A DNA stretch of 64,000 nt from an uncultured Desulfobacterales bacterium (GTDB lineage: Bacteria; Desulfobacterota; Desulfobacteria; Desulfobacterales; QNYZ01): NCBI GenBank assembly GCA_964577615.1, contig CAZNZW010000008.1, positions 54 to 64,053 on the forward strand, read 5' to 3'. Shown one piece after another: positions 2,143 to 47,318 of this stretch (positions are counted from its first letter, which is position 1; every line of letters begins with the position of its first letter). The notes under the pieces are model-generated. The model was not told the DNA's origin, ran no database searches, and was given only the letters and a program-made list of their open reading frames with translations. The translations under genes and the position numbers were made by a program.

Positions 2143-2150
2143 TAAAAACT

Positions 2151-21940: not shown

Positions 21941-22204
21941 ATGACGGACGGAAAGACCCTTGAAACAATCATCCAGCGCGTGGCCGAAGTGATGATCGAC
22001 GAGCTGAAACTGGAAGATGTGACCCCGGAAACCTTTGACGCCGACGTGGACCTCATCGATGAGATCGGTATCGACAGCATGGATCTGGCGACCGTGGCAC
22101 TGGTCCTCCAGGACGAATACGCCATTCATATCGATGAGGACGATTACCCGAAACTCACCACTGTCCGCCTGATCGCCGAATATGTCCAGCAGCGGGTCCG
22201 GTAG
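21941..22204 (+). CDS. Acyl carrier protein 2
   Basis: IGIDSMDL motif; acidic 87 aa; RBS GGAG. Confidence 0.92.
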   Translation: MTDGKTLETIIQRVAEVMIDELKLEDVTPETFDADVDLIDEIGIDSMDLATVALVLQDEYAIHIDEDDYPKLTTVRLIAEYVQQRVR

Positions 22205-22208
22205 AGGC

Positions 22209-23321: not shown

Positions 23322-23353
23322 TGTCCCCGGCCTGATTATCTGGAGTGTTTTGA

Positions 23354-24352: not shown

Positions 24353-24394
24353 TGCCGCCGGCGCCGCGGTTTTCCCGGCGCCCGGAAAAAAATC

Positions 24395-25645: not shown

Positions 25646-25689
25646 GGCCGTTTCTTCGTTCCGGCATCGGCCGGGAAAACGGATGATAT

Positions 25690-26955: not shown

Positions 26956-26956
26956 T

Positions 26957-27436
26957 GTGAAACCGAAACCGTTTCAACCGGAAAAAAAAGCGGCCGATTC
27001 GCCCTACGTCCGGGACCTCACCGACAATCGCTGGTGGCATCGCTGCAGCCACCGGATTCTCTACGCCGACACGGACCGCTCCCAGGTGGTTTACCACGCC
27101 AATTACCTGCGTTACTTCGAGCAGGGCCGGGCCACTCTCATGCGGGACAGCGGTTACCCCTACCGCGAGGTGGAAGACAGCGGGTTTATTTACCCGATCA
27201 TTGCCATGGGGGTGGATTATTTTACACCGCTTTATTACGACGACCCGATCTACATCCACACCCGGCCGGCGGAAATGGAACGGGTGCGCCTGCAGTTTGA
27301 TTACCTGATCACCCACCAAGACACCGGCGCCGTTGTCTGCAAGGGCTTTACCCGTCACTGTGCCACCAACACCGCCGGAACGCCGGTGGGCATTGATGCA
27401 AAAACGACGCACCTATGGCTGACTTTTCCCCGCTGA
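26957..27436 (+). CDS. Acyl-CoA/ACP thioesterase (YbgC/4HBT family)
   Basis: YADTDRSQVVYHANYLRYFEQGR. Confidence 0.88.
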   Translation: MKPKPFQPEKKAADSPYVRDLTDNRWWHRCSHRILYADTDRSQVVYHANYLRYFEQGRATLMRDSGYPYREVEDSGFIYPIIAMGVDYFTPLYYDDPIYIHTRPAEMERVRLQFDYLITHQDTGAVVCKGFTRHCATNTAGTPVGIDAKTTHLWLTFPR

Positions 27437-28260
27437 CCGTTACGGTCGATTTCCCGTTGCCCGCCTACCTGCGGGACCATCGCCTCGGCGGCCGGTCCGT
27501 CCTGCCGGCGGTTGACGCCCTCCGGATACTGGCAGACACCGCCGGCAAATCGATGCCGCCAGCAAATATCCGTCACATGCGCGACATCGCGCTGATCCGG
27601 CTGCTGTCCATCCCCCCTGATGATTCGCGCTGCCGGCTGTTTGTCACGCTTGCCCCGGCCCACGGACCGGACGGCGTGGCCGCGTCGCTGTGCACCCGGT
27701 TCCGGTCGAAATCCGGCCGGATTACCCGTCTGAAGACGCATGTATCGGTGATCTTCGGCGGTCCGCCGCCGCCGGCGGCACCGCTCCCGGATCGGCCGCC
27801 CAGGACCGGGTTCGACGTTGACGCCGCCCGGCTCTACCGGGAGCTGGTGCCCTTCGGGCCGGGGTTCCAGAGCCTGACCGGCACGGTGACGCTCTCACCG
27901 GAAGGCGCCACCGGCACGGCGATGACGCCCCCGAAAACCGTTTCCATCGGTGGCCCGACCGGATCGCCGTTTCCGCTCGATGCGGCTTTTCATGCCGCCT
28001 GCGCCTGGGGCCAGCGGTTTCATCACAAAATCGTCTATCCAATGGCCATCACCCGGCGCGTTATCACAACCCCCACCGCCGTTGACGGGCGCTATGCGGT
28101 CACGGTCAGACCGGTGGCCGCCGGAAACGACACATTGACCTTTGATATCTGGATTACGTCTGCCGCCGGCATCGTGTGCGAAACCGTCCGGGGCGTCCGC
28201 ATGGCGCCCATCGATGGAATCTCCACCGATCCGCCGGCCTGGATATCCGCACCGTGCTGA
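27415..28260 (+). CDS. Stand-alone PKS-type (double-hotdog) dehydratase
   Basis: YLRDHRLGGRSVLP (HxxxGxxxxP), YRELVPFGPGFQSL, PFPLDAAFHAA (catalytic Asp position). Confidence 0.75.
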   Translation: MADFSPLTVTVDFPLPAYLRDHRLGGRSVLPAVDALRILADTAGKSMPPANIRHMRDIALIRLLSIPPDDSRCRLFVTLAPAHGPDGVAASLCTRFRSKSGRITRLKTHVSVIFGGPPPPAAPLPDRPPRTGFDVDAARLYRELVPFGPGFQSLTGTVTLSPEGATGTAMTPPKTVSIGGPTGSPFPLDAAFHAACAWGQRFHHKIVYPMAITRRVITTPTAVDGRYAVTVRPVAAGNDTLTFDIWITSAAGIVCETVRGVRMAPIDGISTDPPAWISAPC

Positions 28261-28320
28261 ATCAAAGTGACGAACGGGTACCCGGCGTCAAGCCGGATTT
28301 AAAATAGAAGAGGAGCCGCG

Positions 28321-28896
28321 ATGACCCTGCGTTTTCTGCTGCTGTTGACCACGGCCTATCTCGCCGGATCGATCAATATTTCCATCGGCCTTTTCCGGCT
28401 GCTGGGGAAAAAAGACCCGCGCGACGCCTTCAGCGGCAACCCCGGTGTCACCAACGTCTACCGCCTGGCCGGACCGGCATGGGCCCTGGGGGTATTGCTG
28501 CTCGAAATGGGAAAAGCCGTTTTTATTGCCCTTCTCGCGCACCGTCTCCTGTCCCCCGGCGTCGTCCCCTGGATCGGCAGCGGCCTGATTATCGGCAACC
28601 GCTTCCCCTGCTTTCACCGATTCAGCGGCGGCAAGGGGGTGGCCAATTTTCTCGGGTTTGCCGCCCCGCTTGCCCCGCTCGCCGCCGGGCTCGGCATGCT
28701 GCTCTGGCTGGCCGCATTTACCCTGAGTCGTCAGCCGTTTATCGGGTCCTTCGCCCTGATCGCCGCTCTGGGCATCGGTATGGCCGCCGCCTGCGGAATC
28801 GGCATCCTCCCTTTATCAGGCACCCTCGTCACTGTCGCCCTGATCGTCCACGCCCATAAAAAAAATATCGCCGGCATTCGCGCCAGCGCTGGATAA
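28321..28896 (+). CDS. plsY: Glycerol-3-phosphate acyltransferase, PlsY family
   Basis: AYLAGS, SGNPGVTNVYR, FSGGKGVA, HKKNI; multi-pass membrane; RBS GAGGAG. Confidence 0.85.
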   Translation: MTLRFLLLLTTAYLAGSINISIGLFRLLGKKDPRDAFSGNPGVTNVYRLAGPAWALGVLLLEMGKAVFIALLAHRLLSPGVVPWIGSGLIIGNRFPCFHRFSGGKGVANFLGFAAPLAPLAAGLGMLLWLAAFTLSRQPFIGSFALIAALGIGMAAACGIGILPLSGTLVTVALIVHAHKKNIAGIRASAG

Positions 28897-28948: not shown

Positions 28949-29611
28949 TCACTCCGCCCGCGGCCGCATCCCGATCGCCCCGGCCGGGCAGATGGTCGCG
29001 CACAGGCCGCATCCATAGCATCGGGCCGGGTCGAAATGCATTTTACCGATAATCATCCGGCGGGCATCAAAAATACAGCGATCCACACACAGGCTGCAAT
29101 GGACACATTTTTCCGCTGCATCCACGGCGATAAAATCGGACCGCACAACGAGATCGGGCCGGTGATACTGTTTCAGAATCTGCAGATCATGGCAGCAGCA
29201 GGCGCAGCAGCTGCACAGGGCATAGATGTCGGGGCCGGGCATATGGAAGGTCAGGTGAACCAGTCCCTCTTTATCGGCGGTTTCCAGGATTTTTTTTGCC
29301 GCTTTTAGAGAAACCGGACGGGCCTGTTTTCTTTTGATCTCTGCGGCGGCCACACTGTTTAGCAGCAGGCAGACATCCACGGGATGGCCGCACCGCTGAT
29401 AATGACTGCGGCAGACACAGGCGGTAACCGCGATGGGGTCTGCGGCCTGCAGAATATCCCGCACCTGGGAGGCCGGCAATATCCACTGACGCGTATCAAT
29501 TGCTTCACGCACTGGAATCACCCGGGCGGAAAAATCGATCTTCCCCTTCGCCATCCACCGCTCGTAGCGCGCCAGCCGGTTTTCCAGAAAGGCGTCTTTT
29601 TCTCCCTTCAT
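28949..29611 (-). CDS. 4Fe-4S dicluster-domain protein
   Basis: CVHCSLCVDRC, CYGCGLCATICP; also CVCR and CSCCACCC. Confidence 0.85.
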   Translation of the reverse strand: MKGEKDAFLENRLARYERWMAKGKIDFSARVIPVREAIDTRQWILPASQVRDILQAADPIAVTACVCRSHYQRCGHPVDVCLLLNSVAAAEIKRKQARPVSLKAAKKILETADKEGLVHLTFHMPGPDIYALCSCCACCCHDLQILKQYHRPDLVVRSDFIAVDAAEKCVHCSLCVDRCIFDARRMIIGKMHFDPARCYGCGLCATICPAGAIGMRPRAE

Positions 29612-30810
29612 CCGGACATCTCCTTTTCATACTGCCGAATCACATCGCCCAGAGTAGTCACGGCCCGGGAAATATCTTTTTCATCGGGGCAGGTAAAGCT
29701 GAGGCGCGCCGTTTCCATGCCGTCGCCTTTGCGGACAAAGAAAAATGTTCCGGGAACAAAGGCCACGTTCCGCGCCACGGCCCGGGCGTAGACCTGCGTC
29801 ATGTCCATGCCTTCCGGTCCCCGCAGCCAGACAAACATGCCGCCTTCAGGCCGGGACCAGTGAAAATACGGCGGGAAAGCGTCTTCCAGCGCCCGGAACA
29901 TGGCGGCCTGCCGGGGCGCATAAATCGACAGAATATGCGGCAGATGGCGGTCAAGGTAGCCGCCTGTCAGATATTCGGCGGCCAGGGCCTGACCAAAGGT
30001 GCTGGTATGCAGGTCCACGCCCTGCCTGGCCGTCACCAGCCATTTTCGAATCGAAGGCGGAGAGATGCAGAATCCGATGCGCAGCCCCGGCGCGAATATC
30101 TTGGAGAACGTCCCGACGTAAACCACGTTATCCGGCGCCATGGAAAAAATGGACGGGACGGCCTCTCCCCGGTATCGCAGGGCGCTGTACGGGTCATCTT
30201 CGATGAGCAGGGCATGATATTTTATCAGCAGGTCGGCAATTTTCTGCCGGAGAGATATCGGGATTGTCCGGCCGGTGGGATTCTGGAAGGTCGGCACCAG
30301 ATAGACGCATTTCACCCGGCCCTGCTTTAAAACCGCTTCAAGCGCATCCGGCGAGACCCCGTCATCGCCGGTCTGAAGGCTGACATAGTTCGGCTGGTAT
30401 GGGGCAAATGCCTGGATGGCGCCCAGATAGGTCGGCGCCTCGATCGCTATTGAATCGCCTCTGGAAATGAGTATTTTCCCCAGGCCATCGAGAATCCCCT
30501 GGGATCCGCTGCCGATGAGCACATCTCCGGTTGACACATCAAGCCCCTCTTTTTCACCAATATATGCGGCCAGGGCTTCCCGGAGCGGCCCGAATCCTTC
30601 CGTCAGGTCGTATTGCAGGGCCCGGTGGCCGTATGTGGTCAGCACCTTGTCAACAAGTTCCGGAAAAATCCGCAGGGGAAAAGAATCCGGTGCGGGCATA
30701 CCGCCGGCCAGGGAGATCATTTTTGGCCGGGCCGCCACCTTCAAAATTTCACGAATGGCACTGGCATCCACGGCCCGCATTCGATCGGCCAGCAGTTGAT
30801 CAAAGTCCAT
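29608..30810 (-). CDS. PLP-dependent aminotransferase class I/II (LysN/ARO8-like)
   Basis: ISLAGGMP, PTFQNPTG, IEDDPY, GTFSKIFAPGLRIG. Confidence 0.9.
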   Translation of the reverse strand: MDFDQLLADRMRAVDASAIREILKVAARPKMISLAGGMPAPDSFPLRIFPELVDKVLTTYGHRALQYDLTEGFGPLREALAAYIGEKEGLDVSTGDVLIGSGSQGILDGLGKILISRGDSIAIEAPTYLGAIQAFAPYQPNYVSLQTGDDGVSPDALEAVLKQGRVKCVYLVPTFQNPTGRTIPISLRQKIADLLIKYHALLIEDDPYSALRYRGEAVPSIFSMAPDNVVYVGTFSKIFAPGLRIGFCISPPSIRKWLVTARQGVDLHTSTFGQALAAEYLTGGYLDRHLPHILSIYAPRQAAMFRALEDAFPPYFHWSRPEGGMFVWLRGPEGMDMTQVYARAVARNVAFVPGTFFFVRKGDGMETARLSFTCPDEKDISRAVTTLGDVIRQYEKEMSG

Positions 30811-31817: not shown

Positions 31818-32318
31818 CTAAGCCTGCGACAGCTTAAGTACCAGCCGCTGCTCGTTGACGGCGGTGCCCCACTCGGTTCCCATACATTGTTCGGTGAGAA
31901 CAAATCCGTTTTTCTCATACAACCGCCGGGCGACATGAAGCCCTTCAAAGGTCCACAAATAAACCGTTGGATATTTTTTTCCCCGGCAAAAACTGATGGC
32001 CGCATGGAGCAACTGATGGCCGATCCGTTTTCCATGCAGATGCTCGGCAACGATAAACCAGCGCAGATGGGCCCCCTTGCTGCCGGCGTGGATGCCGTCA
32101 ATGGAAATGGTGGCAACGACCCGTCCCATTTCAGATACCGTCCAGAACCCGTCGCGTGATTCATCGTATCGATTCAAAAACGTGGACAAACCAGTGGCGA
32201 CCATGGCTTCGAAGTAAAGATCAAATCCCCAGTGGCGGTGGTAGTAGGTGCCGTGAAGTTCGGTAACCTGCCCGATGGCGCCCGGAAAATAGCCTTGATC
32301 CACCCGAATCTCTGACAT
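31818..32318 (-). CDS. GNAT-family N-acetyltransferase
   Basis: AHLRWFIV, GKRIGHQLL, LWTFEGLHVARRLYEKNGF. Confidence 0.88.
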   Translation of the reverse strand: MSEIRVDQGYFPGAIGQVTELHGTYYHRHWGFDLYFEAMVATGLSTFLNRYDESRDGFWTVSEMGRVVATISIDGIHAGSKGAHLRWFIVAEHLHGKRIGHQLLHAAISFCRGKKYPTVYLWTFEGLHVARRLYEKNGFVLTEQCMGTEWGTAVNEQRLVLKLSQA

Positions 32319-32552: not shown

Positions 32553-35500
32553 ATGACTTTCAACGAACCGATTGCCGTGGTGGGAATGGGCGGGGTATTC
32601 CCCGGCGCACAAACGCTTTCCACCTTCTGGCAGAATATTCTCAATCGCGTCGAAACCGCCGACGATGTACCGGCTGCCCGGTGGGGAATACCGCCCCGGG
32701 CCATGCTGGCCGAGCAGTTTGCACCGGATAAGGCATACGGCCGGCGCGCCTGTTTAATTCAAAATTTCCAGTTCGACCCATCCGGCCTGAACATCTCATC
32801 AACGGCTGCCCGCGATCTGGACCCGCTTTATCACCTGGCCCTGCATGCCGGCCGGGAGGCCCTGGCCGGAAGTATTTCGCCGGGCCTTAACCGGGACCGG
32901 ACCGGCGTGATTTTAGCGGCCATCGCATTGCCCACCGACGGGGCATCGGATGCAGCCCGAAGGATCGTCGGGCAGTCTCTGGCCGATTCCGTTATGGCGG
33001 TCATGGGGGACACGCCATCCCGTCAGAATCGTCCGTTACCGGACCGCACGTTCCTGTCCGGGCAGGTCACATCGCTTCCGGCTGCGCTGATCGCCAGGGC
33101 GCTCGATCTGGGGGGCGGCACCCTGACCCTGGACGCCGCCTGCGCCTCGTCGCTTTACGCCATTAAACTGGCCTGCGACGAACTGGCCGCCCGCCGTGCC
33201 GATGCCATGCTGGCCGGGGGCGTCTCCCGGCCCGACTGCCTCTATACCCAGGTGGGGTTTACCCAGCTGCGCGCGCTGTCACCGTCGGGCCGATGCGCGC
33301 CCTTTGACCGGACCGCCGACGGCCTGGTGGTGGGCGAAGGCGCCGGCATCGTCATGCTGAAACGACTCGCCGATGCAGTATCGGCCGGCGATGTGATTCA
33401 CGGCGTTATCCGGGGCATCGGGTGGTCCAACGATCTTCGCGGCAACCTGCTGGCCCCGAGCAGCGAAGGCCAGATCCGGGCCATGCAGCAGGCCTACCGC
33501 TCTTCCGGCTGGTCTCCCCACGATGTGGACCTGATCGAATGCCACGGCGCGGGGACGCCCCTGGGCGATGCCACGGAGCTGGCCAGCCTGCAGACCCTGT
33601 GGGGTCACCCGGAAACATCCCGGAGAACCTGCGCCATTGGATCCGTCAAATCGATGATCGGTCATTTGCTGACCGGTGCCGCGGCCGCCGGGCTGATTAA
33701 AACCTTGCTGGCCATCAAGAATCACACCCTGCCGCCATCGATCAACTTTGACCAGCCGCCTGCGGACAGCCCGCTGATTGACGGGCCGTTCAGGGTGCAG
33801 ACCAACGCCGCGGCCTGGTCCCAACGGGATTCGAACACCCCGCGCCGGGCAGCGGTGAACGCCTTTGGATTTGGGGGAATCAATGCCCATCTGCTGGTTG
33901 AGGAGTATGTTGACGCGGCGGCCGGTGGGCCGGTGGGCCAGCCGGCCAGCCGGCCAGTCAGCCAGTCGGCCAGTGGGGCAATCGTGCAGCCGGCCGGGCA
34001 GCCGGTGGCCATCGTCGGGATGGCGGCGGCTTTTGGGCGGCTGACGTCTCTCGAATCATTCGAAAACGCCGTTTTTAACGGAGAATCCGCCATCGGGCGC
34101 CGTCCCGATGCCCGGTGGAAGGGTTGTGACGCATATGCTCCCGGATTGCCGGGTACCGCCGGGATGTCCGGGGCCTTCATGGATCAGATCCAGATCCAGC
34201 CCGGCGAATTTCGCATTCCCCCGACCGAAATCGTCGATATTCTCCCCCAGCACCTGCTCATGCTCCAAACCGCCTGCCGGGCGGCCCGGGACGCCGGCCT
34301 GGCGACAGAAGCCAGACCCCGCGCCGGGACGATCATCGGGATCGAGTTTGATTATGAAGCCACGAATTTTCACCTGCGCTGGGATCTGTTCAACGCGGTT
34401 CAGCGCTGGAATGATGAAAAAAACCTGGGGCTCAGCCGCCGCGATATGGACCAGTGGCGGCAGCAGCTCCAGAAGATTACCGGCCCGCCCCTGACCCACG
34501 AACGCACCCTGGGCGCCCTGGGCAGCATGGTCGCCAGCCGGGTGGCCCGTGAACTGCGGCTGGGCGGCCCGAGTTTTGTCATATCCGACGGACCGGCCTC
34601 TGGACTGCGGGCCCTGGAAATCGGTGTCCGATCCCTCCAGCGGGGGGAAACCGACGCCATGCTCATCGGTGCGGTGGATCTGTTCGGGGATATCCGCAAT
34701 CTGGCGACGGCATCGGACGGATTACGGTTTTCATCGACCGACACCCTGCGCCCCTTTCACTCCGATACTGACGGCACCCTGCCCGGCGACGGCGCCGGTG
34801 CGGTGGTGATCAAACGGCTGGACGACGCGCTGAAAGCGAACGATCGCATCTATGCGGTGATTCAGGGACTTTCGGCCACCACCGGAAACAGATCCGATTC
34901 GAATTCAATGACGGCGGCCTATGCGCGGGCCGTCCATCAGGCCACGGCAGCGGCCGGATGGCGTGTCGACGATGTGGGGTTTCTGGAAGTTCACGGCAGC
35001 GGCGATCCTGGAGAAGACCGGTTGGAGAAAGCGGCGCTGACCACCCTGTTTCCGGCGGCCCCCCGGCCGGCCGGTCCATGCTTTCTTGGCACATCGAAGC
35101 CAACGGTCGGCTATGTGGGGGCGGCGGCATCCATGGCGTCTTTAATTAAAACCGCCTGCTGCCTGTTCCGGCGGCAATTGCCCCCCTGGACGGCACCGGC
35201 GGAAATCGATCCCGACATCCGGTCAAACGGATCGTTTCAGCTGACCGGTCACACGATTTCCTGGCCTTCCCCAGCGGCTGGCACTCAGTACCGGGCAGGA
35301 ATCGTTGCCCTGACCCCTTCGGGTGGCTGTGCCTGCATCGCCCTGGAAAACGGGCCTGAGTCAGGCCCCACTTGTGCGGCACCCGCGCCGCACCCGCTGG
35401 AAACCACGACCGCCGCCACGCCGATCACCCTGACCATCGGGGGATTGCCCGAATCGCCGCCGCTGCCACCGGAACGACTGCGGAAAACCGTTCGCCCGGT

Positions 35501-38189
35501 TGAAAAAACGGCCCCATCCACATCCGGCATCCCCGCAGACATACCCGAGGTGGAAATGATCCGCCAGGTGGCTGAAAATACCGCGGCAACGGAAAAAGCC
35601 CACAGCCGCTTCCTCGCATTTTCCGCGGACCTGACCCGGATCTATGGTGACACCCTGGCCTTTCAGCGGGAATTCCTGGAACAGCATCCAGCGGCAGCCA
35701 ACCTGTTTAAGTCACCGTCTGAAGACCGGTCCCGCCCCGGCCGCCCACCGCAAGCCGGCCGCCCCGAACACGATGCCCCTGTTTTCCCCCGTCCGATGTG
35801 CATGGAATTTGCCATCGGATCCGTGGCAAAGGTGCTGGGCCCGGCCTTTTCCGATGTGGATACCTATCCGGCCCGGGTGAGGCTGCCCGACGAGCCGTTG
35901 ATGCTCGTTGACCGGATCATCGCCATCGAGGGCCGGAAAGGCGTCCTCGGACCGGGCCGCATCATCACCGAACACGACGTCCACCCGGATATCTGGTATC
36001 TCGACGGCGGCCGGACGCCGGTGTGCATTTCGGTGGAGGCCGGCCAGGCCGACCTGTTTCTGTGCGCCTATCTCGGAATTGATTTTAAGGTAAAGGGAAA
36101 ACGGACCTACCGTCTGCTCGATGCCACGGTGACCTTTCACAGTGCGCTTCCCCGCCCCGGCGATACCATCCGCTACGATATCCACATCGACAAATTTGTT
36201 CGCCAGGGCGAGACCTGGCTCTTCTTTTTCCGGTTTGAGGGCGCCATCAACGGCCGGCCGTTGATTACCATGGTCGATGGCTGTGCCGGGTTCTTCACCC
36301 ACGAGGAGGTCACCCGGTCCGGCGGGATTATCACCACGGATGACACGCCGCCCGACGCCCCCAAGGGCCGGGGAAAATGGGCCCCCTGGGTGCCGGTCAA
36401 AACCGAACGCTATTCCGATGCCCAGCTCGATGCCCTGCGGCAGGGCGACATGGCCGCCTGCTTTGGCAATGATTTTCGCGGCATGACCGTCCCCGGCGCC
36501 CTGCGGCTGCCCGGCGGGCGGATGCGGCTCATCGACCGGGTGCTCCTTGTCGATCCGGCCGGCGGAAAATTCGGCCTCGGATTTATCCGGGCCGAAGCGG
36601 ATATCCATCCGGACGACTGGTTTCTCACCTGCCATTTCGTGGATGACAGGGTCATGCCGGGCACATTGATGTACGAATGCTGCGCCCACACGCTTCGGGT
36701 TCTGCTCCAGCGCATGGGCTGGGTCTGCGATCAGCCGGCGGCCGCATACGAGCCGGTCATCGGTGTTCAGAGCAAGCTGAAATGCCGCGGACCGGTGACC
36801 CCGGATACCCGAAAAGTCCATTACGAATTAACCATCCGGGAAGTCGGCTACGAACCGGAGCCCTACGTGATCGGCGATGCCGACATGTTTGCCGATGGCC
36901 GTCATATTGTCCGGTTCAACGATATTTCCATGAAGATGACCGGCGTGACCCGGCACGACCTGCGTGATTACTGGCATCGCCATACCCACGGCACCCCACC
37001 GGATCAACGCGGTCAGAAAAAACCGGCCGCCGTCTTCAGCCATGCGCAAATCCTCGCCTTTGCCCAAGGAAACCCGTCCGAGGCATTCGGCCGCCGATAT
37101 CGGCCCTTTGACAGCAACAGGTTCATCGCCCGGCTGCCCAGACCGCCGTATCTCTTCATCGACCGGATCACCCGGTGCGACCCGCCGCCGTGGATCGTCA
37201 AGGCCGATGGCTGGGTGGAGGCCCGATTTGACACTGCGCCGGCCGACTGGTATTTCACGGCCGACCGCTCCGGTATCATGCCCTATGCCATCCTGCTGGA
37301 AATTGCCCTGCAACCCTGCGGCTGGCTGGCCGCATATATGGGGTCGGCCCTGCTGAGTGAAGACGATCTCCACTTCCGGAACCTAGGGGGGCAGGGGATT
37401 ATCCAGGCCGATATCCCGGCCGGCGATCATCCCCTCGCCACCCGGGTTCGCCTGACACGGATATCCAAGGCGGCGGGGATGATTGTGGAATCGTTCGATT
37501 TCGACGTCCGCGCCGGGTCCCAACTGATTTACAAGGGTGATTCCTATTTCGGTTTTTTTTCCAAAACCGCCCTGGCCCAGCAGGAAGGGATCCGCGATGC
37601 CGAAAAGCGGGTTTTCCGGGCCGACCCGGCCGGTTCGATTTTGTCTGAGCCCTGCTGTTTTCCCGACGTGCCGCCCCTGCGGCCAGAAGATACCGACCCG
37701 GCCGGCACGGGGTCGACATCGGCCCTGCAGATGCCGGCCACGGCCATCCGGATGGTCGATCGAATCGATCTCTTCATTCCCGACGGCGGCCCCCGGCGGC
37801 TGGGCTACATCCGGGGGCAGAAGCAGGTCAACCCCGACGACTGGTTCTTCAAGGCGCATTTCCACCAGGACCCGGTCTGGCCGGGATCGCTGGGAATCGA
37901 GTCTTTTATCCAGCTGCTCAAATACTATCTGATCGCCACCTGGAAAGAGAAAGTTGACGGCCACCGGTTTTCCATCACGTTTCCCCGGCGCCACGAGTGG
38001 ATCTACCGGGGTCAGATTTTACCGACCGACGGGAATGTCACCGTGGAAGCGATCATCACGCAGGTGACGACCGACCCGTCTGTATCCATCACGGCTGACG
38101 GATTTCTCAGCGTCGATGGCCGTTATATCTATGAAATGAAACAATTCGGTATCTCACTGGTACCGCTCTCATCAAGGTCAATCCCATGA
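32553..38189 (+). CDS. pfaC: PfaC-like PUFA-synthase subunit (KS - KS/CLF - FabA-type DH domains)
   Basis: KS1 DAACASS, ECHGAGT, KSMIGH; KS2 lacks Cys (SDGPAS); FabA-like repeats RLPDEPLMLVDRI, DWFLTCHFVDDRVMPG, RLPRPPYLFIDRI, DWFFKAHFHQDPVWPG; no AT or ACP domain; ORF track start 32496. Confidence 0.88.
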   Translation: MTFNEPIAVVGMGGVFPGAQTLSTFWQNILNRVETADDVPAARWGIPPRAMLAEQFAPDKAYGRRACLIQNFQFDPSGLNISSTAARDLDPLYHLALHAGREALAGSISPGLNRDRTGVILAAIALPTDGASDAARRIVGQSLADSVMAVMGDTPSRQNRPLPDRTFLSGQVTSLPAALIARALDLGGGTLTLDAACASSLYAIKLACDELAARRADAMLAGGVSRPDCLYTQVGFTQLRALSPSGRCAPFDRTADGLVVGEGAGIVMLKRLADAVSAGDVIHGVIRGIGWSNDLRGNLLAPSSEGQIRAMQQAYRSSGWSPHDVDLIECHGAGTPLGDATELASLQTLWGHPETSRRTCAIGSVKSMIGHLLTGAAAAGLIKTLLAIKNHTLPPSINFDQPPADSPLIDGPFRVQTNAAAWSQRDSNTPRRAAVNAFGFGGINAHLLVEEYVDAAAGGPVGQPASRPVSQSASGAIVQPAGQPVAIVGMAAAFGRLTSLESFENAVFNGESAIGRRPDARWKGCDAYAPGLPGTAGMSGAFMDQIQIQPGEFRIPPTEIVDILPQHLLMLQTACRAARDAGLATEARPRAGTIIGIEFDYEATNFHLRWDLFNAVQRWNDEKNLGLSRRDMDQWRQQLQKITGPPLTHERTLGALGSMVASRVARELRLGGPSFVISDGPASGLRALEIGVRSLQRGETDAMLIGAVDLFGDIRNLATASDGLRFSSTDTLRPFHSDTDGTLPGDGAGAVVIKRLDDALKANDRIYAVIQGLSATTGNRSDSNSMTAAYARAVHQATAAAGWRVDDVGFLEVHGSGDPGEDRLEKAALTTLFPAAPRPAGPCFLGTSKPTVGYVGAAASMASLIKTACCLFRRQLPPWTAPAEIDPDIRSNGSFQLTGHTISWPSPAAGTQYRAGIVALTPSGGCACIALENGPESGPTCAAPAPHPLETTTAATPITLTIGGLPESPPLPPERLRKTVRPVEKTAPSTSGIPADIPEVEMIRQVAENTAATEKAHSRFLAFSADLTRIYGDTLAFQREFLEQHPAAANLFKSPSEDRSRPGRPPQAGRPEHDAPVFPRPMCMEFAIGSVAKVLGPAFSDVDTYPARVRLPDEPLMLVDRIIAIEGRKGVLGPGRIITEHDVHPDIWYLDGGRTPVCISVEAGQADLFLCAYLGIDFKVKGKRTYRLLDATVTFHSALPRPGDTIRYDIHIDKFVRQGETWLFFFRFEGAINGRPLITMVDGCAGFFTHEEVTRSGGIITTDDTPPDAPKGRGKWAPWVPVKTERYSDAQLDALRQGDMAACFGNDFRGMTVPGALRLPGGRMRLIDRVLLVDPAGGKFGLGFIRAEADIHPDDWFLTCHFVDDRVMPGTLMYECCAHTLRVLLQRMGWVCDQPAAAYEPVIGVQSKLKCRGPVTPDTRKVHYELTIREVGYEPEPYVIGDADMFADGRHIVRFNDISMKMTGVTRHDLRDYWHRHTHGTPPDQRGQKKPAAVFSHAQILAFAQGNPSEAFGRRYRPFDSNRFIARLPRPPYLFIDRITRCDPPPWIVKADGWVEARFDTAPADWYFTADRSGIMPYAILLEIALQPCGWLAAYMGSALLSEDDLHFRNLGGQGIIQADIPAGDHPLATRVRLTRISKAAGMIVESFDFDVRAGSQLIYKGDSYFGFFSKTALAQQEGIRDAEKRVFRADPAGSILSEPCCFPDVPPLRPEDTDPAGTGSTSALQMPATAIRMVDRIDLFIPDGGPRRLGYIRGQKQVNPDDWFFKAHFHQDPVWPGSLGIESFIQLLKYYLIATWKEKVDGHRFSITFPRRHEWIYRGQILPTDGNVTVEAIITQVTTDPSVSITADGFLSVDGRYIYEMKQFGISLVPLSSRSIP

Positions 38190-39226
38190 AATATACGAAC
38201 GTTTTCATCGATGCCTTCGGGTACGAGCTGCCCCCCAACGTCATCACATCCGACGATCTGGAAAACCGGCTGGCCCCGCTGTATCGAACGCTCCACATCA
38301 CCCCGGGGCAATTGACGGCCATCACCGGCGTCCGGGAACGCCGCTTCTGGGACCGCGGCTTCCGCATGCGCACCGGCGCCATCATGGCCGGCCGCAAGGC
38401 GCTGGCCGACTCGGCGGCCGCTCCCGCCGATGTCGGCATGCTGATATACGGCGGCGTCTGCCGGGATCATCTGGAACCGGCCACGGCCTGCGCGGTGGCC
38501 GAGGGCCTGGGCATCGGCCCCGATGCCGAGATCCTTGACATTTCCAACGCCTGTCTCGGGGTTTTAAACGGCATCATCCATGTGGCCAACGCCATCGAAC
38601 TCGGCCAGATCCAGGCGGGAATGATCGTTTCCTGCGAATCCGCCCGCCAGATCGTGGAGCAGACCATCGAGCGGATGCTGGACCAGCCGAACATGGAAAT
38701 ATTCAAAAAATCCCTGGCCACCCTCACCGGCGGATCCGGCGCCGTGGCCGTGGTGCTGACCCACCGCGACCTGGCTGACCGGGGCCACCGTATCCAGGGC
38801 GGCATCGCCTTAAACGACACCCGGCACCACCGGCTCTGCATCTGGGGGCCGGACACGGGCATCCCGGCCACCATGCCCCTGGTGATGGAAACCGATGCCG
38901 TGGGCGTCCTCGAAAACGGCGTCAAGCTCGGCACGCGGACCTACCGGGCATTTCGGGAGACGATCTGGCGCAACGCCGGACCACCCGACAAGATCATCTG
39001 CCACCAGGTGGGCGCGGCCCACCAGCGAACCATCCTTCAGGCCCTGGATATCCCCGCCGAAAAAGATTTTGTCACCTATCCTTTTCTCGGCAACATCGGC
39101 ACGGTTTCTCTGCCGATCACGGCGGCCATCGCCCGCGAACGCGGCTTCCTGACAGCCGGCGACCAGGTGGGATTTTTCGGTATCGGCAGCGGCCTGAACT
39201 GTCTGCTGCTGGGGGTTCGATGGTAA
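38186..39226 (+). CDS. oleA: OleA head-to-head acyl condensing enzyme (thiolase/KAS III fold)
   Basis: TGVRERRFW, DHLEPATA (Glu), ISNACLG (Cys), ICHQVG (His), LGNIG; start overlaps pfaC stop. Confidence 0.88.
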   Translation: MKYTNVFIDAFGYELPPNVITSDDLENRLAPLYRTLHITPGQLTAITGVRERRFWDRGFRMRTGAIMAGRKALADSAAAPADVGMLIYGGVCRDHLEPATACAVAEGLGIGPDAEILDISNACLGVLNGIIHVANAIELGQIQAGMIVSCESARQIVEQTIERMLDQPNMEIFKKSLATLTGGSGAVAVVLTHRDLADRGHRIQGGIALNDTRHHRLCIWGPDTGIPATMPLVMETDAVGVLENGVKLGTRTYRAFRETIWRNAGPPDKIICHQVGAAHQRTILQALDIPAEKDFVTYPFLGNIGTVSLPITAAIARERGFLTAGDQVGFFGIGSGLNCLLLGVRW

Positions 39227-40125
39227 TCCGCGCTCTGCCTGCCGCTGTCCGGCAACTGTATCCGTTCCCGTCCCGTTACCTGACGGCCAGCGGCCTTCAG
39301 TACCACTACCTGGACGAAGGGCGGGGCACGCCGATCGTCATGGTTCATGGCAATCCGACCTGGTCGTTTTTTTTCCGGGATCTGATCCGGGATCTGTCAC
39401 GCGACCACCGGGTCATCGTCCCGGACCATATTGGCTGCGGCCTGTCAGATACGCCGCCCCGGTCCCGGTACGGCTACCGGCTGGCCGACCGGGTCGCCGA
39501 CCTTGACCGCCTGCTGGCCCGACGGGTGCCCGACGAAAAAATCACCCTGCTCGTACACGACTGGGGCGGCATGATCGGCATGGCCTGGGCCATCGATCAT
39601 ATCCCCCGCATCGCCCGGATCATTGTCCTCAACACCGCCGCTTTTCTCCCCATGCCAGGCAAACCGCTGCCCTGGCAGCTGCGCCTGATCCGAAACGTGC
39701 CGGCCGTTGCCACCGGTGCGGTCCTCGGCCTGAACCTGTTCGCCGCCGGCGCCATTTTCATGGCCCCCTTTTACCGCCTGCCGCCCGCCGTCCGGGCCGG
39801 ATACCTGGCCCCGTACAACCGGCCTGCCCACCGGATCGCCACCCTGGCCTTTGTGCAGGATATTCCGGTGAAGCCGACAGACCCAAGCTACCCTGTTGCC
39901 GCCCGGACCGACGCCGCGCTCTGCCGGCTGGCCCACGTACCGATGGGCATCTTCTGGGGAAAGCACGATTTCGTATTCGACACCGACTATCTGACCGAAT
40001 GGCGGCGGCGCTTTCCCGATGCCGAGGCCCATCTGTTCAACGATGCCGGCCATTACCTGCTCGAAGATGCCGGCGACCGGATCATTCCCCGGATACGTTC
40101 GTTCTTGCAAAAGCACCCGCTTTGA
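39220..40125 (+). CDS. oleB: OleB beta-lactone decarboxylase (haloalkane-dehalogenase-like alpha/beta hydrolase)
   Basis: VHGNPTWSF, PDHIGCGLSD, VHDWGG (Asp nucleophile), AGHYLLED; position between oleA and oleC. Confidence 0.87.
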   Translation: MVIRALPAAVRQLYPFPSRYLTASGLQYHYLDEGRGTPIVMVHGNPTWSFFFRDLIRDLSRDHRVIVPDHIGCGLSDTPPRSRYGYRLADRVADLDRLLARRVPDEKITLLVHDWGGMIGMAWAIDHIPRIARIIVLNTAAFLPMPGKPLPWQLRLIRNVPAVATGAVLGLNLFAAGAIFMAPFYRLPPAVRAGYLAPYNRPAHRIATLAFVQDIPVKPTDPSYPVAARTDAALCRLAHVPMGIFWGKHDFVFDTDYLTEWRRRFPDAEAHLFNDAGHYLLEDAGDRIIPRIRSFLQKHPL

Positions 40126-40224
40126 TAGTAAGAAGTTGTATTCATAACCGTACCCCTGAAATAAAGACCTGAAAGCAACATCCGGCAACAAGAGTCGATC
40201 TTGCCATTTTAGAAAAAGGACCGG

Positions 40225-41925
40225 TTGATTTTTCCCATGACAGACGCTCCCCAAACCGACCATTCCACCGCCGCCGCAGAAAAAACCGTGAATGTAGCGG
40301 TCCACCTGGCGCGGATGGCACGTGATTTTCCGTATCGAAAAGCGGTTATCCAGCCCGTCGGGCGCGACCACCAGAACCGGGTGGCCTATTCCCACCTGAC
40401 CTTCCGGCAGCTGCACCGGGAATCCGACTGTCTGGCCCACGGCCTCGATCAGGCCGGCATTTCCGCGGGTGTCCGGACGGTTTTGATGGTCCCGCCCAGC
40501 CCGGATTTTTTTGTTCTGATTTTCGCCCTTTTCAAGGTCGGCGCCGTCCCGGTCATCGTGGATCCGGGCATGGGAATCCAGCGCATGCTCCGCTGCCTGC
40601 GGGGAACGGAGCCAACAGCTTTCATCGGTATTTCCAAGGCCCATGTCCTGCGTTTTTTTTATCCCCGTTTTTTCCGCAGCGTCACGCATTGGGTCACCGT
40701 GGGGCGGCGCTGGTTCTGGAGCGGCCGGACCCTGGATCAATTGCTCGTCAAACCCTGGACACCCTATCCGGCCAACCCCACCCGGCGGGATGAGACCGCC
40801 GCCATTCTGTTCACCACGGGAAGCACCGGCCCGGCCAAGGGTGCCGTCTATACCCACGGCAATTTTGACGCCCAGGTGGCGCTGATCCGTTCCCATTTCA
40901 ATATTGCCCCCGGTGAAATTGACCTGCCCACCTTCCCTCTGTTTTCGCTGTTTGATCCGGCCCTGGGAATGACCGCCGTGATCCCCGACATGGACCCGAC
41001 CCGGCCGGCCCGGGCCCATCCGGTCAAAATCATCGAAGCCATCATTGATCATGGCATCACCAACATGTTCGCATCCCCGGCCCTGCTCAAACGTCTGGGA
41101 GAATACGGCCGGGACCGGGACATCCGCCTGCCGTCCCTGCGGCGGGTCATTTCGGCCGGGGCGCCGGTGTCGCCGGATGTCATCGACCTGTTTTCCCGCA
41201 TGCTGCCGCGCCATGCCGAAGTGCACACCCCGTACGGCGCCACGGAAGCCATGCCCGTCGCATCCATTGCCAGCCACGAAATCCTGAAAAACACCCGGCA
41301 GATGAGCGCCAAGGGTTTCGGCATCTGCGTCGGGCGCCCCATTGACGGCATTGACGTTAAAATCATTAAAATCACGGACGACCCGATTGACCGGTGGCGG
41401 GATGATCTGGTTCTGCCCGCCGGGCGAATCGGAGAAATCACTGCCTGCGGACCGCCGGTCACGCGCCGGTACTATGCGGATCCCCCGGCCGATGCGCTGG
41501 CAAAGATAAAAGACGGCGACGGTTTCCGGCACCGGATGGGGGATCTGGGATGGATCGACAGTTCCGGGCGAATCTGGTTTTGCGGACGCAAAAACCATCG
41601 GGTCATCATCAATGAAAACGATGCGCTCTATTCAATTCCCTGCGAATCAATCTACAACAACCACCCGGATGTTTCCCGCAGCGCCCTGGTGGGCGTGGGA
41701 GACGCCCCGCACCAAACCCCGGTCATCTGTATCGAGCTGAAAGAAGACGTTTCCCCGCAGGCGCATGAGCGAATCCAGGCTGAACTGGTGGCACTTGGCA
41801 AAACCAGTCCGCATACAAAGGCGGTAAAAGAGGTGCTTTTCCACGACGCTTTTCCCGTGGATATTCGCCATAACGCCAAGATTTTCCGCGAACAGCTCGC
41901 CCAATGGGCCGAAGAACAGATGTAG
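40225..41925 (+). CDS. oleC: OleC beta-lactone synthetase (AMP-dependent ligase family)
   Basis: AILFTTGSTGPAKG, DLPTFPLFSLF, TPYGATEAMPV, HRMGDLG, FPVDIRHNAKIFR. Confidence 0.9.
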   Translation: MIFPMTDAPQTDHSTAAAEKTVNVAVHLARMARDFPYRKAVIQPVGRDHQNRVAYSHLTFRQLHRESDCLAHGLDQAGISAGVRTVLMVPPSPDFFVLIFALFKVGAVPVIVDPGMGIQRMLRCLRGTEPTAFIGISKAHVLRFFYPRFFRSVTHWVTVGRRWFWSGRTLDQLLVKPWTPYPANPTRRDETAAILFTTGSTGPAKGAVYTHGNFDAQVALIRSHFNIAPGEIDLPTFPLFSLFDPALGMTAVIPDMDPTRPARAHPVKIIEAIIDHGITNMFASPALLKRLGEYGRDRDIRLPSLRRVISAGAPVSPDVIDLFSRMLPRHAEVHTPYGATEAMPVASIASHEILKNTRQMSAKGFGICVGRPIDGIDVKIIKITDDPIDRWRDDLVLPAGRIGEITACGPPVTRRYYADPPADALAKIKDGDGFRHRMGDLGWIDSSGRIWFCGRKNHRVIINENDALYSIPCESIYNNHPDVSRSALVGVGDAPHQTPVICIELKEDVSPQAHERIQAELVALGKTSPHTKAVKEVLFHDAFPVDIRHNAKIFREQLAQWAEEQM

Positions 41926-42020: not shown

Positions 42021-42539
42021 ATGGAATTATCCGGAAAAAACTTTATCGTGCTGGCCGAGGAGATGGTAAACGATCAGGAATTCTGGTACCCCTATTTCCG
42101 GCTCCAGGAAGCCGGCGCCAGGGTGACTGTTGTGGGTTCGGGCAGTGCCGACCATTATACCGGCAAGGCCGGCACCCACATCGAAGTCGATGCCGCCGCC
42201 GACCAGATATCGCTGGAAAAATACGATGGCATCGTGATTCCCGGCGGATACGCCCCGGATCACCTGCGCCGCTATCCGGCGGTGCTGCATCTGGTAAAAC
42301 GGCTTTTTGAAACCGGGAAAGTCGTGGCCGCCATCTGCCATGCGGGCTGGGTGCTTGTTTCCGCGGAGATTCTACGCGATCGCCAGGTGACTTCCTACAT
42401 CGCCATCAAGGATGATCTGGTCAATGCCGGCGCCCGATGGACAGACGCTGAAGTGGTCATCGACGGTAATCTGGTAACGAGCCGCACCCCGGCGGATCTG
42501 CCCGCCTTCATGCGGGCCATCATCAGCGTCGCCGCCTGA
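42021..42539 (+). CDS. PfpI/DJ-1 family type 1 glutamine-amidotransferase-like protein
   Basis: PGGYAPD, AICHAGW, VVIDGNLVTSR. Confidence 0.9.
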   Translation: MELSGKNFIVLAEEMVNDQEFWYPYFRLQEAGARVTVVGSGSADHYTGKAGTHIEVDAAADQISLEKYDGIVIPGGYAPDHLRRYPAVLHLVKRLFETGKVVAAICHAGWVLVSAEILRDRQVTSYIAIKDDLVNAGARWTDAEVVIDGNLVTSRTPADLPAFMRAIISVAA

Positions 42540-42590: not shown

Positions 42591-43460
42591 ATGTCACAAC
42601 CCCAGTCCATACGCACCCTGCTCCGGGAACACAAAGCCCTGCTCATCGTCATGATCGTGGGGATTATCCTGCTGGAAGTTGAGATTTTTGCTTTTGCCGC
42701 CCTGAAAACGGGCCGAAAGTCGGTGCTCGAAATTCGCGACAAGCAGGGGAATCTGATCCATGTCACCGACGGCGACCATCTGAGCTCATTCAACAAATAC
42801 TACTTTGAGCAGACCTTCGGCCCCCTGACGCAATACCAGACCCGCCTGGCCGTCAAAGACCGCCCCTTCCCCTTCCGCGCCTGGTTCGCTGCGGCCGTGG
42901 GCATTCCCGTCGGCGCCGTCCTCCTGTTCGGCTTTGTCGTCCGGGCCTATCTGGCCATCGTCCACGGTGACGTTCTGGCCGGAGATACGGCCCCACACCC
43001 GGCGAATGCCCCGGGCTCCCGTCTGCAGCGGATCATCGGCCACCTCCGGCGAACGAATGTTTTTATTCTCGGGGCGGGGATTTTCCTGCTTGCGGCAGGA
43101 TACTGGATCGTTCCCAACATGATCACCTACCTGGGACGCGCCAGCCTCGATACAATCATCCGATATAAATGGATTTTTCTGCCCGCGGCAACCGTCTTGG
43201 CCGCCATTGTCGTCTGGATTATCTATCTGCGCTATCTGCTGGCCAGGGCGGCCATCGCCAGCCAGGCGGAAGTTGAGAAATACCAGCTCCGGCTCACCAT
43301 GGAAAATACTGCCCCGCTGGCGCTGACACATGACGCCCGCTCTGGAGACAGCGCCGCTGATGCCGCCAACCCCGCCACCGGTAATCCGCCCCGTGCCGGT
43401 GACACGCCGGCAGCGGGCCGGCGGCCGGCCGCTCAGTCAAACACCGACACGCCGGTATAA
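42591..43460 (+). CDS. Membrane protein of unknown function
   Basis: About 4 hydrophobic segments; Ala/Pro-rich tail overlapping the purB stop. Confidence 0.7.
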   Translation: MSQPQSIRTLLREHKALLIVMIVGIILLEVEIFAFAALKTGRKSVLEIRDKQGNLIHVTDGDHLSSFNKYYFEQTFGPLTQYQTRLAVKDRPFPFRAWFAAAVGIPVGAVLLFGFVVRAYLAIVHGDVLAGDTAPHPANAPGSRLQRIIGHLRRTNVFILGAGIFLLAAGYWIVPNMITYLGRASLDTIIRYKWIFLPAATVLAAIVVWIIYLRYLLARAAIASQAEVEKYQLRLTMENTAPLALTHDARSGDSAADAANPATGNPPRAGDTPAAGRRPAAQSNTDTPV

Positions 43461-45770: not shown

Positions 45771-47318
45771 TTACTTCTTTCTCTGTAAAAATGAGCTTCG
45801 GGTCATGCCGGCGCCCACGGAATCATTTAAGATAATCCGGGCCCGGCGCAACGCATCGAGATTGCGATTAATCGGGATTCCCTGGATTGAATCTGGTTTC
45901 AGGGCGCCGCGCTGCAGATCGTATGGCAGCCGCTGCATGCAGACCACCGAGCAGTTCCCCCGGGTATGAATATTGGTCACCGCCTTGTTGGCAAGAAATG
46001 ACGACACCTCGCTTTTGACGTCCCTGGCGCCATCGGCCAGCAGCTGCTCAAGAGTCAGGGGGATCATGGCAAAATTGGCCTGGTGCTCGATCAGCAGGTC
46101 GATGTCCCGGATAGTCAGCTGGTGGGATGCCAGCAATTTGCTCAAATGGAAACCCGCTCCGCGGGTGGCATAGAGAAAGACGCCTTTACCGTCCATTTCT
46201 CCATACACATCGCCATCGCTTTCTTTTTTTTCCGCCTGAATAAAATGCCCGAAGCATCCATGGGTGCTGGTGGCCGCGTCAACAATACCGTATTTCGGCG
46301 ACACAAAGTCAAACCCCCTCCCCTGGTGAACGGTAACCCGCAGGCGGCCATCGGCACGGGTACGGACAGCCGCAACCGTATGGTATTTTCCCGAGCGGAC
46401 ATACGCCCGGGCAATCAGATCAACAATCCCCGGTTGTCCCGTCATGGTCATGATATCAAACGCAAAACTATTGACCTTTTCCTCATAAAAACGCAACGCA
46501 TCCTTGAAACGGGTAAATACGCCGGCATCAACCGCTTCCGGGTACATCAGTTCCACCATCCGGTGCTGAACCCGGGCCGCCGTTGCCGGTACCCGGTATT
46601 CTATTTTTCCCAGATGATTGTCGACGATCAGGCCGTCGACGCGCTGGCCGTCGGTGACTTCGAGTACCGCCCGGGCAATGGCATCGACCGGATCGGTTCC
46701 CAATGGGTATTCGGCAGGTTCAGACACGGCGTCATTTCCCGCCAGATCAAAGGCGCCGTGTGTCTGAAAAGCGGTGGCCAGGGCATCATCGCCGAAAATT
46801 ATCGACGCCGTATCCGATGACCGGAACGCATTGGCCCTGTGAATATTTTCAGCGCCGACGATCACCGAAAGATCGTCCGGAGACAGCACCCCCGTGGCCG
46901 ACAGCATCAAAAGCATTTCAACGGCCACATTATAGCCGGGACAGCCGGCATACAGGTCGATGGCCACCAGATCGGGATTTTCGTTTTTGATCACTTCCCA
47001 GGGAAATCGAACGAGCGGGCCGGGATCGTATTTATCTTCACCGATATTGGTCGCGCCAATCAGAAAACGGACCCGGGACGGATCCACCGCCGGATCGCTG
47101 AGCAGGTCCTTCAGCGCCAGCACACCGATCCGGGTATCTTCGGGGGCCGCCATCCGCGTCCGGACCCCTATGCGTTCCTCGATCGTCTGGCTGTTTACCG
47201 GGACGTTATTTTTAAACACCATTCCCTTGTCTTCGTAGTAGCTGTTGTCCACCAGTGTACCGCCATTCCAGGCCCCATAGGCCAGAATGGACAAGATCGA
47301 TTCTGTCATGAATATCAT
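45771..47318 (-). CDS. Enlarged 3-oxoacyl-ACP synthase III (FabH)-like protein
   Basis: IEERIGVRTR, AGCPG (Cys), IFGDDA, MDGKGVF, EHQAN (His), RGNCS (Asn); 515 aa. Confidence 0.75.
   Translation of the reverse strand: MIFMTESILSILAYGAWNGGTLVDNSYYEDKGMVFKNNVPVNSQTIEERIGVRTRMAAPEDTRIGVLALKDLLSDPAVDPSRVRFLIGATNIGEDKYDPGPLVRFPWEVIKNENPDLVAIDLYAGCPGYNVAVEMLLMLSATGVLSPDDLSVIVGAENIHRANAFRSSDTASIIFGDDALATAFQTHGAFDLAGNDAVSEPAEYPLGTDPVDAIARAVLEVTDGQRVDGLIVDNHLGKIEYRVPATAARVQHRMVELMYPEAVDAGVFTRFKDALRFYEEKVNSFAFDIMTMTGQPGIVDLIARAYVRSGKYHTVAAVRTRADGRLRVTVHQGRGFDFVSPKYGIVDAATSTHGCFGHFIQAEKKESDGDVYGEMDGKGVFLYATRGAGFHLSKLLASHQLTIRDIDLLIEHQANFAMIPLTLEQLLADGARDVKSEVSSFLANKAVTNIHTRGNCSVVCMQRLPYDLQRGALKPDSIQGIPINRNLDALRRARIILNDSVGAGMTRSSFLQRKK

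Follow-up and report, generated by a model that had tools for sequence, protein, structure and literature searches.

In Shewanella oneidensis and Photobacterium profundum, the 16:4n-3 product of the Pfa polyunsaturated fatty acid (PUFA) synthase is condensed by OleA, giving the olefin C31:9; the pfa operon of P. profundum lies next to its ole operon (PMC6463001). Geobacter bemidjiensis also makes C31:9, here named hentriacontanonaene, and carries pfaD, pfaA, pfaB, pfaC, oleA, oleB, oleC, oleD and pfaE in tandem (reviewed in PMC4882568). Clusters resembling pfa, termed 'Type I' and holding a pfaBC fusion, were described in Deltaproteobacteria by Shulse and Allen and proposed to feed olefin synthesis; ole genes were often linked to such clusters and sometimes located elsewhere (PMC3098273). 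OleB is a beta-lactone decarboxylase, the product of OleA loses CO2 spontaneously to give a ketone, and clusters containing oleB lead to olefins, whereas oleACD clusters without oleB lead to beta-lactones (Smith et al., PMC7064751). The locus considered here, a pfaC-like gene followed by oleA, oleB and oleC, lies in a 64,000-nt stretch of DNA (the window) from an uncultured Desulfobacterales bacterium (QNYZ01; assembly GCA_964577615.1, contig CAZNZW010000008.1, positions 54-64,053, forward strand). That pfa and ole genes can be linked, with pfaC beside oleA among the cases, has already been described (PMC4882568, PMC3098273), and the window holds a lineage-specific reduced form of this linkage, which is probably not a new kind of pathway. 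The four genes most likely represent the conserved core module of a dispersed pathway to very-long-chain polyunsaturated olefins, with the partner genes encoded elsewhere.

A close described counterpart is the pfa-ole cluster of G. bemidjiensis Bem, with which the window shares pfaC directly before oleA, followed by oleB and oleC, the same enzyme families and an anaerobic 'deltaproteobacterial' host (PMC4882568, PMC3098273). Only the middle four genes of that cluster are present in the window, however: pfaD and pfaA are not found upstream, there is neither a pfaB-type acyltransferase (AT) nor oleD, pfaE was not seen among the open reading frames (ORFs) scanned in the window, and a PfpI-family gene occupies the oleD position. 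The pfaBC-oleABCD operons of other Desulfobacterales, which resemble the 'Type I' secondary lipid synthases with a pfaBC fusion of Shulse and Allen, follow the same order and encode OleA proteins 61-71% identical and PfaC proteins about 50-58% identical to those of the window, but in most of them the AT lies inside a PfaBC protein of 2.3-2.5 kaa, whereas the clade of the window is AT-less and oleD-less. The biochemical logic assumed for the window is that of PfaABCDE and OleABCD in S. oneidensis and P. profundum, where, in contrast, the pfa and ole operons are complete, pfaC lies outside the ole operon and oleABCD never lacks oleD. OleABCD of Xanthomonas campestris is the biochemically and structurally characterised reference; the window OleA aligns with its OleA over the full length and shares the Glu, Cys, His and Asn residues, the window OleB has the haloalkane-dehalogenase-like Asp and His, and OleC belongs to the same NCBIfam family. 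The Xanthomonas enzymes differ in acting on ordinary fatty acyl-CoAs without a Pfa synthase and in having oleD in the cluster. The oleACD-type beta-lactone clusters for lipstatin and nocardiolactone share OleA-like and OleC-like enzymes with the window, but they contain oleD and no oleB, the reverse of the situation in the window (PMC7064751).

Identity and coupling of the four genes

The coordinates of the genes are collected in Table 1. The pfaC-like reading frame encodes 1878 aa from the ATG at 32553, or 1897 aa from an alternative TTG at 32496. Two ketoacyl-synt domains (E = 7.7e-89) and FabA in three matched stretches (E = 7.3e-84) were found with Pfam, while the best NCBIfam matches, to PfaA and polyketide synthase (PKS) models, were restricted to the ketosynthase (KS) part. 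The first KS carries the motifs DAACAS (Cys216), HGAGT350 and GHL389; in the second KS-like domain DGPASGL aligns with DAACASS and the active Cys is missing, and this domain was therefore assigned as a chain-length factor (CLF). Both FabA-type dehydratases (DH) retain the His motif HFxxDxxxPG, as HFVDDRVMPG at about residue 1380 and as HFHQDPVWPG at 1788. No AT domain was detected in PfaC (no PF00698 match in Pfam), and a 65-aa Pro/Ala-rich linker (residues 952-1016) stands cleanly in place of the AT region of about 580 aa found in PfaBC relatives, the reference for the alignment being residues 930-1509 of P0027. AT-less PfaC proteins made up 24 of the best 120 database hits and were spread over several groups of the tree. 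Over its full length, the window PfaC is 52-58% identical to PfaC or PfaBC proteins from clusters that also hold pfaA and pfaD.

OleA (346 aa) matched NF006720 with 461.6 bits (cut-off 285) and aligned over its full length with the Xanthomonas OleA structures 3fk5 (E = 3e-56) and 3row (E = 1e-54), whereas true FabH structures matched at only E = 1e-15 to 1e-16. Residues E97 and C123, the His in 'CHQV' and the Asn in 'GNIG' align with the corresponding residues of 3fk5, which we take to be the catalytic Cys143, His285 and Asn315 and the second base Glu117 in X. campestris numbering. The published OleA pattern EPxx[AS]x(14,18)DxxNACL (PMC7158056) is also present, as EPATA, 16 residues and DISNACL. 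On these matches the protein is an OleA-type condensing thiolase, with the non-decarboxylative Claisen condensation of two long acyl-CoAs as its predicted activity.

OleB (301 aa) was assigned to Abhydrolase_1 (E = 2.7e-32) and matched haloalkane dehalogenase structures with E values down to 1e-30; its nucleophile elbow HDWGG (Asp114) and the His278 of a C-terminal GHY are intact. The oleC reading frame encodes 562 aa from position 40237, or 566 aa from an alternative TTG at 40225. Its product scored 741 bits against NF006754 (cut-off 478) and remained below the narrow cut-offs of the 'olefin beta-lactone synthetase' equivalogs NF045786 (630 bits, cut-off 900) and NF045785 (621 bits, cut-off 850). 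The adenylation motifs TTGSTGPAK, YGATE, GDL and RHNAK are all present.

The genes are tightly coupled. The stop codon of pfaC and the start codon of oleA overlap in ATGA, oleA and oleB overlap in the 7 nt ATGGTAA, and gaps of about 110 nt and of 95 nt separate oleB from oleC and oleC from pfpI, with a GGAG ahead of the pfpI ATG. The pfpI gene may be co-transcribed with the ole genes. The initial annotation had described a KS-CLF-DH protein of about 1.9 kaa followed by oleA, oleB and oleC, an ATGA overlap between the first two genes, a divergent GNAT gene upstream and PfpI downstream; the four gene assignments were borne out by Pfam, NCBIfam and motifs, the overlap by direct reading of the junction and the two flanking genes by Pfam.

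Table 1. Genes of the pfaC-oleABC locus and of its surroundings in the window (positions in nt).
Feature	Position	Strand	Basis or remark
pfaC-like (KS, CLF, two FabA-type DH; without AT)	32553..38189	+	Pfam, NCBIfam, motifs
oleA (predicted head-to-head Claisen condensing thiolase)	38186..39226	+	NCBIfam, structure matches, motifs
oleB (haloalkane-dehalogenase-like alpha/beta hydrolase, presumed beta-lactone decarboxylase)	39220..40125	+	Pfam, structure matches, motifs
oleC (AMP-forming, olefin beta-lactone synthetase family)	40237..41925	+	NCBIfam, motifs
DJ-1/PfpI family gene	42021..42539	+	PF01965, E = 3.4e-52; TIGR01382, 182.7 bits
Conserved hypothetical protein, four hydrophobic membrane-span-like segments	42591..43460	+	289 aa; no Pfam match
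GNAT acetyltransferase, divergent	31818..32318	-	PF00583, E = 2.4e-14
B12/radical SAM protein	13689-14951	-	type II cluster
LolA, FabG-type ketoreductase, ApeP-like dehydratase		-	type II cluster
Fused KS-CLF	17994-20168		type II cluster
B12/radical SAM protein	20169-21515		type II cluster; TIGR04072 'lipid biosynthesis B12-binding/radical SAM', 380.9 bits (cut-off 360)

The partner genes of a complete pathway were searched for with Pfam on essentially all ORFs of at least 150 aa, and with tblastn using the OleD, PfaD and full-length PfaA proteins of relatives. The initial annotation had reported no PfaA with multiple acyl carrier protein (ACP) domains, no AT, no enoyl reductase (ER) and no OleD-type reductase in the window, and this was upheld over the 64 kb: neither PfaA, an AT domain, PfaD nor a 3-beta-hydroxysteroid dehydrogenase (3-beta-HSD)-type OleD was found with either search, and tblastn gave no pseudogene remnants of PfaA, PfaD or OleD. 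The 2032-aa PfaA of a relative (locus L095, described below) retrieved only KS domains and one weak ketoreductase (KR) match from the window; two PfaD proteins gave no match, and no NMO or FabD_helical_ins domain was found with Pfam. With two OleD proteins nothing better than E = 0.08 was obtained, and no PF01073/Epimerase protein is encoded in the 64 kb. No Pfam match to a PfaE phosphopantetheinyl transferase was obtained among the ORFs scanned in the window, of which the small ones were only partly covered.

Gene order and selection in relatives

Species-representative genomes were scanned with OleA, which yielded 80 loci, all from Desulfobacterota-type metagenome-assembled genomes (MAGs); a metagenome scan with PfaC gave four loci. 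Loci are numbered with the prefix L. The contig flanks of the relatives were read to 10 kb around the match, and the 59 loci with enough sequence downstream of oleC were taken as informative for oleD. The oleC of the window is orthologous by position to oleC in 80 loci, and pfaC or pfaBC was found directly upstream of oleA-oleB-oleC in 66 of the 80. The pfaC-oleABC module is widespread in Desulfobacterota, and the arrangement to which the initial annotation had drawn attention is not exceptional. The oleD gene, whose product in the relatives is a 3-beta-HSD family protein in Pfam, comes after oleC in 45 of the informative loci; the other 14 of the 59, about a quarter of this Desulfobacterales set, have no oleD in the cluster. 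These 14 loci are not scattered: two belong to the clade of the window (L012 and L013), nine to a second clade and three are singles. The second clade, of Desulfobacteraceae (L019, L022, L026, L028, L029, L042, L043, L047 and L068), has an ABC transporter after oleC.

The clade of the window comprises six members: the window, L008, L012 (on a contig shared with L009), L013, L093 and L098. All six have the AT-less order pfaC-oleA-oleB-oleC-pfpI, with PfaC identities down to 63%. The pfpI gene lies directly 3' of oleC in every one of them, at gaps of about 26-95 nt, and fills the slot that oleD fills in other lineages. The neighbouring group in the distance tree has the order pfaC-oleA-oleB-x-oleC-oleD, likewise with an AT-less pfaC.

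Fuller and sparser layouts were also found. In L095 (JGI contig BBDRAFT_10310258, 1-20000), pfaD, a small ORF and a pfaA with the domains KS-AT-ACP-KR-DH are followed by a DEAD helicase and a 200-aa ORF on the other strand, and then by pfaBC, oleA and oleB; unrelated genes come after oleB, and oleC and oleD are missing from the locus. The DEAD helicase and the 200-aa ORF are retained upstream of pfaC in L013 and L093, where they stand in the place that GNAT has in the window. No pfaA or pfaD was found within 10 kb upstream of pfaC in L100, a sister-clade locus in which oleD is present, nor within 10 kb on either side of the solitary pfaBC of Desulfonema magnum (L092; CP061800.1), a complete genome of 8 Mb. 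In most of the AT-containing loci the 10-kb flank stops at about the point where pfaA would start, and the absence of pfaA cannot be read there; it was established for the window (32 kb upstream), for L100 and D. magnum (10 kb), and for L013 and L093 (past the helicase landmark).

Some irregularities of the pfaC and pfaBC loci were recorded as well. In L013 (4237-10004), from a long-read MAG, pfaC appears as two abutting ORFs of 1030 and 891 aa that meet at 7329, which is either an assembly frameshift error or a real split between CLF and DH. The pfaBC reading frames are heavily fragmented in three further loci from long-read MAGs (L014, L035 and L066). In D. magnum, pfaBC is followed by a CRISPR-Cas locus with a fusion of reverse transcriptase to Cas1 (RT-Cas1) and a type III Cas10 gene.

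Ratios of nonsynonymous to synonymous substitution (dN/dS) were determined against relatives at 61-82% amino acid identity, where dS is near saturation, and were 0.17-0.20 for pfaC, 0.09-0.14 for oleA, 0.19-0.20 for oleB and 0.13 for oleC. All four genes are therefore under purifying selection in the absence of a linked oleD. Furthermore, at a given OleA identity, the OleB and OleC identities of oleD-less pairs were not lower than those of oleD-containing pairs.

A probable dispersed olefin pathway and its alternatives

Elongation by PfaC needs an ACP carrier, a KR and an ER, and OleC needs the OleA product in its reduced form, so the functions missing from the locus are most simply encoded elsewhere. 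By analogy with the Shewanella, Geobacter and Xanthomonas systems, PfaC would contribute the KS/CLF elongation and the FabA-type dehydration and isomerisation of a PUFA-type synthase, with PfaA (ACP, KR and AT carrier) and PfaD (ER) supplied from another locus. The polyunsaturated acyl product would be condensed head to head by OleA, and a reductase from another locus, in the simplest case the product of an unlinked oleD, would reduce the resulting beta-keto acid. OleC would then close the beta-lactone, and OleB would decarboxylate it to the cis-olefin. The product and the unlinked partners are postulated from the described systems, and this dispersed pathway, with the four genes as its conserved core module, is the most likely reading, at moderate confidence. 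It is favoured by the free shuffling of the genes in the order, in which pfaBC alone, oleAB without oleCD, oleABC without oleD, and pfaC with ole genes but without pfaA and pfaD have all been found. Among the three possibilities that the initial annotation had offered, a split pathway, a variant ending in a ketone or beta-lactone, and the use of another reductase, the first gives the best fit to a widespread module, to the lack of oleD in 14 of 59 loci and to the relatives without pfaA or pfaD nearby, and the second fares badly for reasons given below.

Several points weigh against a dispersed pathway. The missing partners are not a contig-edge effect, as the window extends 32 kb upstream and 22 kb downstream of the locus, and the local layout (within the 21-kb L013 locus) is kept on contigs of relatives of up to 305 kb. 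In L013 and L093, pfaA does not lie beyond the DEAD helicase, and the retention of that landmark without pfaA behind it indicates that pfaA and pfaD are really gone from the locus. For this organism, pfaA, pfaD, oleD and a phosphopantetheinyl transferase gene are all postulated. Finally, a non-orthologous replacement of OleD would give the same picture of two clades stably without a linked oleD.

Such a replacement is the alternative that survives best, although it is considered rather unlikely. OleD would have been lost and a non-orthologous reductase, such as another short-chain dehydrogenase/reductase (SDR) or a KR, would serve in its place, OleC and OleB still leading to the olefin and pfaA and pfaD possibly lying elsewhere. 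The absence of oleD from the cluster in six of six members of the window clade and, independently, in the nine-locus clade is as expected from this, as are the normal constraint on OleB and OleC in spite of that absence and the lack of any oleD remnant in the window. No replacement candidate is conserved beside the cluster, however. The PfpI protein, the 289-aa ORF and two conserved ORFs further downstream, of 305 and 515 aa, were examined, with neither a Rossmann motif nor a reductase match being found, and PfpI and the 289-aa membrane-protein-like product are not reductases; in the second clade the genes after oleC are those of an ABC transporter. The only SDR of the window sits in a separate lipid cluster, described below, which is unlinked to pfaC in L013 and L093. 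Unlinked pathway genes are, moreover, demonstrably common in the group, which makes an unlinked oleD the simpler reading. A bolder version of this alternative, more doubtful again, would have at least two clades of Desulfobacterota, the six-member clade of the window and the nine-locus clade, running the olefin pathway without an OleD orthologue through a non-orthologous reductase, perhaps with the PfpI/DJ-1 protein as an accessory. In the clade of the window, the AT-less PfaC would then work on its own with a carrier system that is unlinked or unconventional.

A variant end product was judged very improbable. It would be either a long-chain ketone, arising as the OleA product loses CO2 spontaneously, or a beta-lactone natural product made by OleC; no reductase is present in the cluster, and OleA alone is known to give ketones by that spontaneous route (PMC7064751). 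If the route ended at a ketone, OleB and OleC would have nothing to act on; both are nevertheless intact, show dN/dS values of 0.13-0.20 and are as conserved as in oleD-containing lineages. Since OleB and OleC are still constrained, a beta-hydroxy acid, and hence a reductase, would be required, which argues against a ketone and equally against a decaying locus. The presence of oleB argues against a beta-lactone, as beta-lactone producers are the clusters without oleB (PMC7064751), whereas the oleB of the window overlaps oleA by 7 nt and keeps its Asp and His.

Equally improbable is a partnership of PfaC with a type II lipid/polyketide cluster in place of PfaA and PfaD, by which the window would hold a complete new hybrid system. 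This cluster, at 13689-28896 and omitted from the initial annotation, ends 3.6 kb upstream of pfaC. Besides the genes in Table 1, it encodes two discrete ACPs, an ApeI-like dehydratase, two more radical SAM proteins (four in total), two FabF-like KSs, a 4HBT thioesterase, a PS-DH dehydratase and PlsY, and it resembles aryl-polyene and radical-SAM 'ladderane-type' clusters. Two ACPs, a FabG-type KR, the ApeI, ApeP and PS-DH dehydratases and the 4HBT thioesterase are thus available 3.6-18 kb upstream of pfaC. However, four divergently oriented and unrelated genes (ferredoxin, aminotransferase, TetR and GNAT) intervene, neither an ER nor an AT was found in the cluster, and one of its B12/radical SAM proteins falls into TIGR04072, the family having been defined for another lipid pathway. 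In L013 and L093 the cluster is not next to pfaC, the DEAD helicase and other genes lying upstream instead; since the linkage is not conserved, the cluster is taken as a neighbour of PfaC and not as its partner. As a supplier of ACP and KR to PfaC it was accordingly rejected as the principal explanation.

The least probable explanation is that the locus is the decaying, productless remnant of a once complete pfa-ole cluster: the AT domain, pfaA, pfaD and oleD have all been lost from it when compared with the fuller layouts of relatives, but no ORF is broken, no catalytic motif is missing, dN/dS lies at 0.09-0.20 with dS close to saturation, and the arrangement is kept across six lineages with PfaC identities down to 63%.

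If the partners of the dispersed pathway are encoded elsewhere, vent-associated Desulfobacterota would be added to the known producers of polyunsaturated hydrocarbons, and pfaC, rather than the whole pfa operon, would be the gene that travels with oleABC. If OleD proves replaceable, this would matter for the engineering of olefin and beta-lactone pathways and for annotation rules that demand oleBCD beside oleA. A modest question is raised in either case, namely how the oleD-less clades reduce the OleA product, given that oleB and oleC are normally constrained.

Neighbouring genes and source of the sequence

The GNAT gene is a neighbour of pfaC only in the closest relatives, lying upstream in L009/L012 and L096, and is probably outside the pathway. 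Between the two lipid clusters, the minus strand at 28949-30810 carries genes for a protein with a 4Fe-4S ferredoxin domain and for an aminotransferase of class I/II; a TetR regulator gene comes next. Downstream of oleC, the PfpI protein carries the Cys-His elbow AICHAG, and the 289-aa protein that follows is 61-63% identical to the ORFs found after pfpI in L093 and L013; this membrane-protein-like ORF thus accompanies pfpI in three members of the clade and is absent at that position in L008, L012 and L098. Located 3.8 kb downstream of oleC on the opposite strand (45771-47318), a 515-aa protein without a Pfam match at normal thresholds shows the FabH-type motifs AGCPG, HQAN and GNCS, matches FabH structures with E = 8e-8, is about 190 residues longer than these and is conserved at 78-79% identity in L008 and L012. 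By its motifs and structure matches, it is a putative divergent condensing enzyme resembling beta-ketoacyl-ACP synthase III (KAS III). Scanning for promoters and terminators gave no excess over shuffled sequence, and a search for RNA runs covering the region brought up only runs of unlabelled kind, with a flat, DNA-like depth.

Proteins identical to those of the window are present on metagenome contigs of ENA, JGI and Logan. The sequence runs containing the window sequence are hydrothermal-vent and epibiont metagenomes, in one of which, a vent metagenome run, the organism reaches a depth of about 300-500x. Unclassified 'Deltaproteobacteria' MAGs are the closest genomes, and the broader set of relatives belongs to Desulfobacterales. 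Tol-Pal and RuvABC genes are also encoded in the window, which is consistent with a Gram-negative chromosome. The first part of the window (1-6000) has a GC content of 44-48%, compared with 52-67% in the remainder, and encodes a sulfatase (580-2142) and a radical SAM/SPASM maturase-like protein (2151-3305). The exact sulfatase protein was found in a single record, from a short JGI contig; the long ENA contigs with the ole region were not among its matches. The low GC content and the sparse records of the sulfatase suggest that this part varies between strains, was acquired or results from an assembly join.

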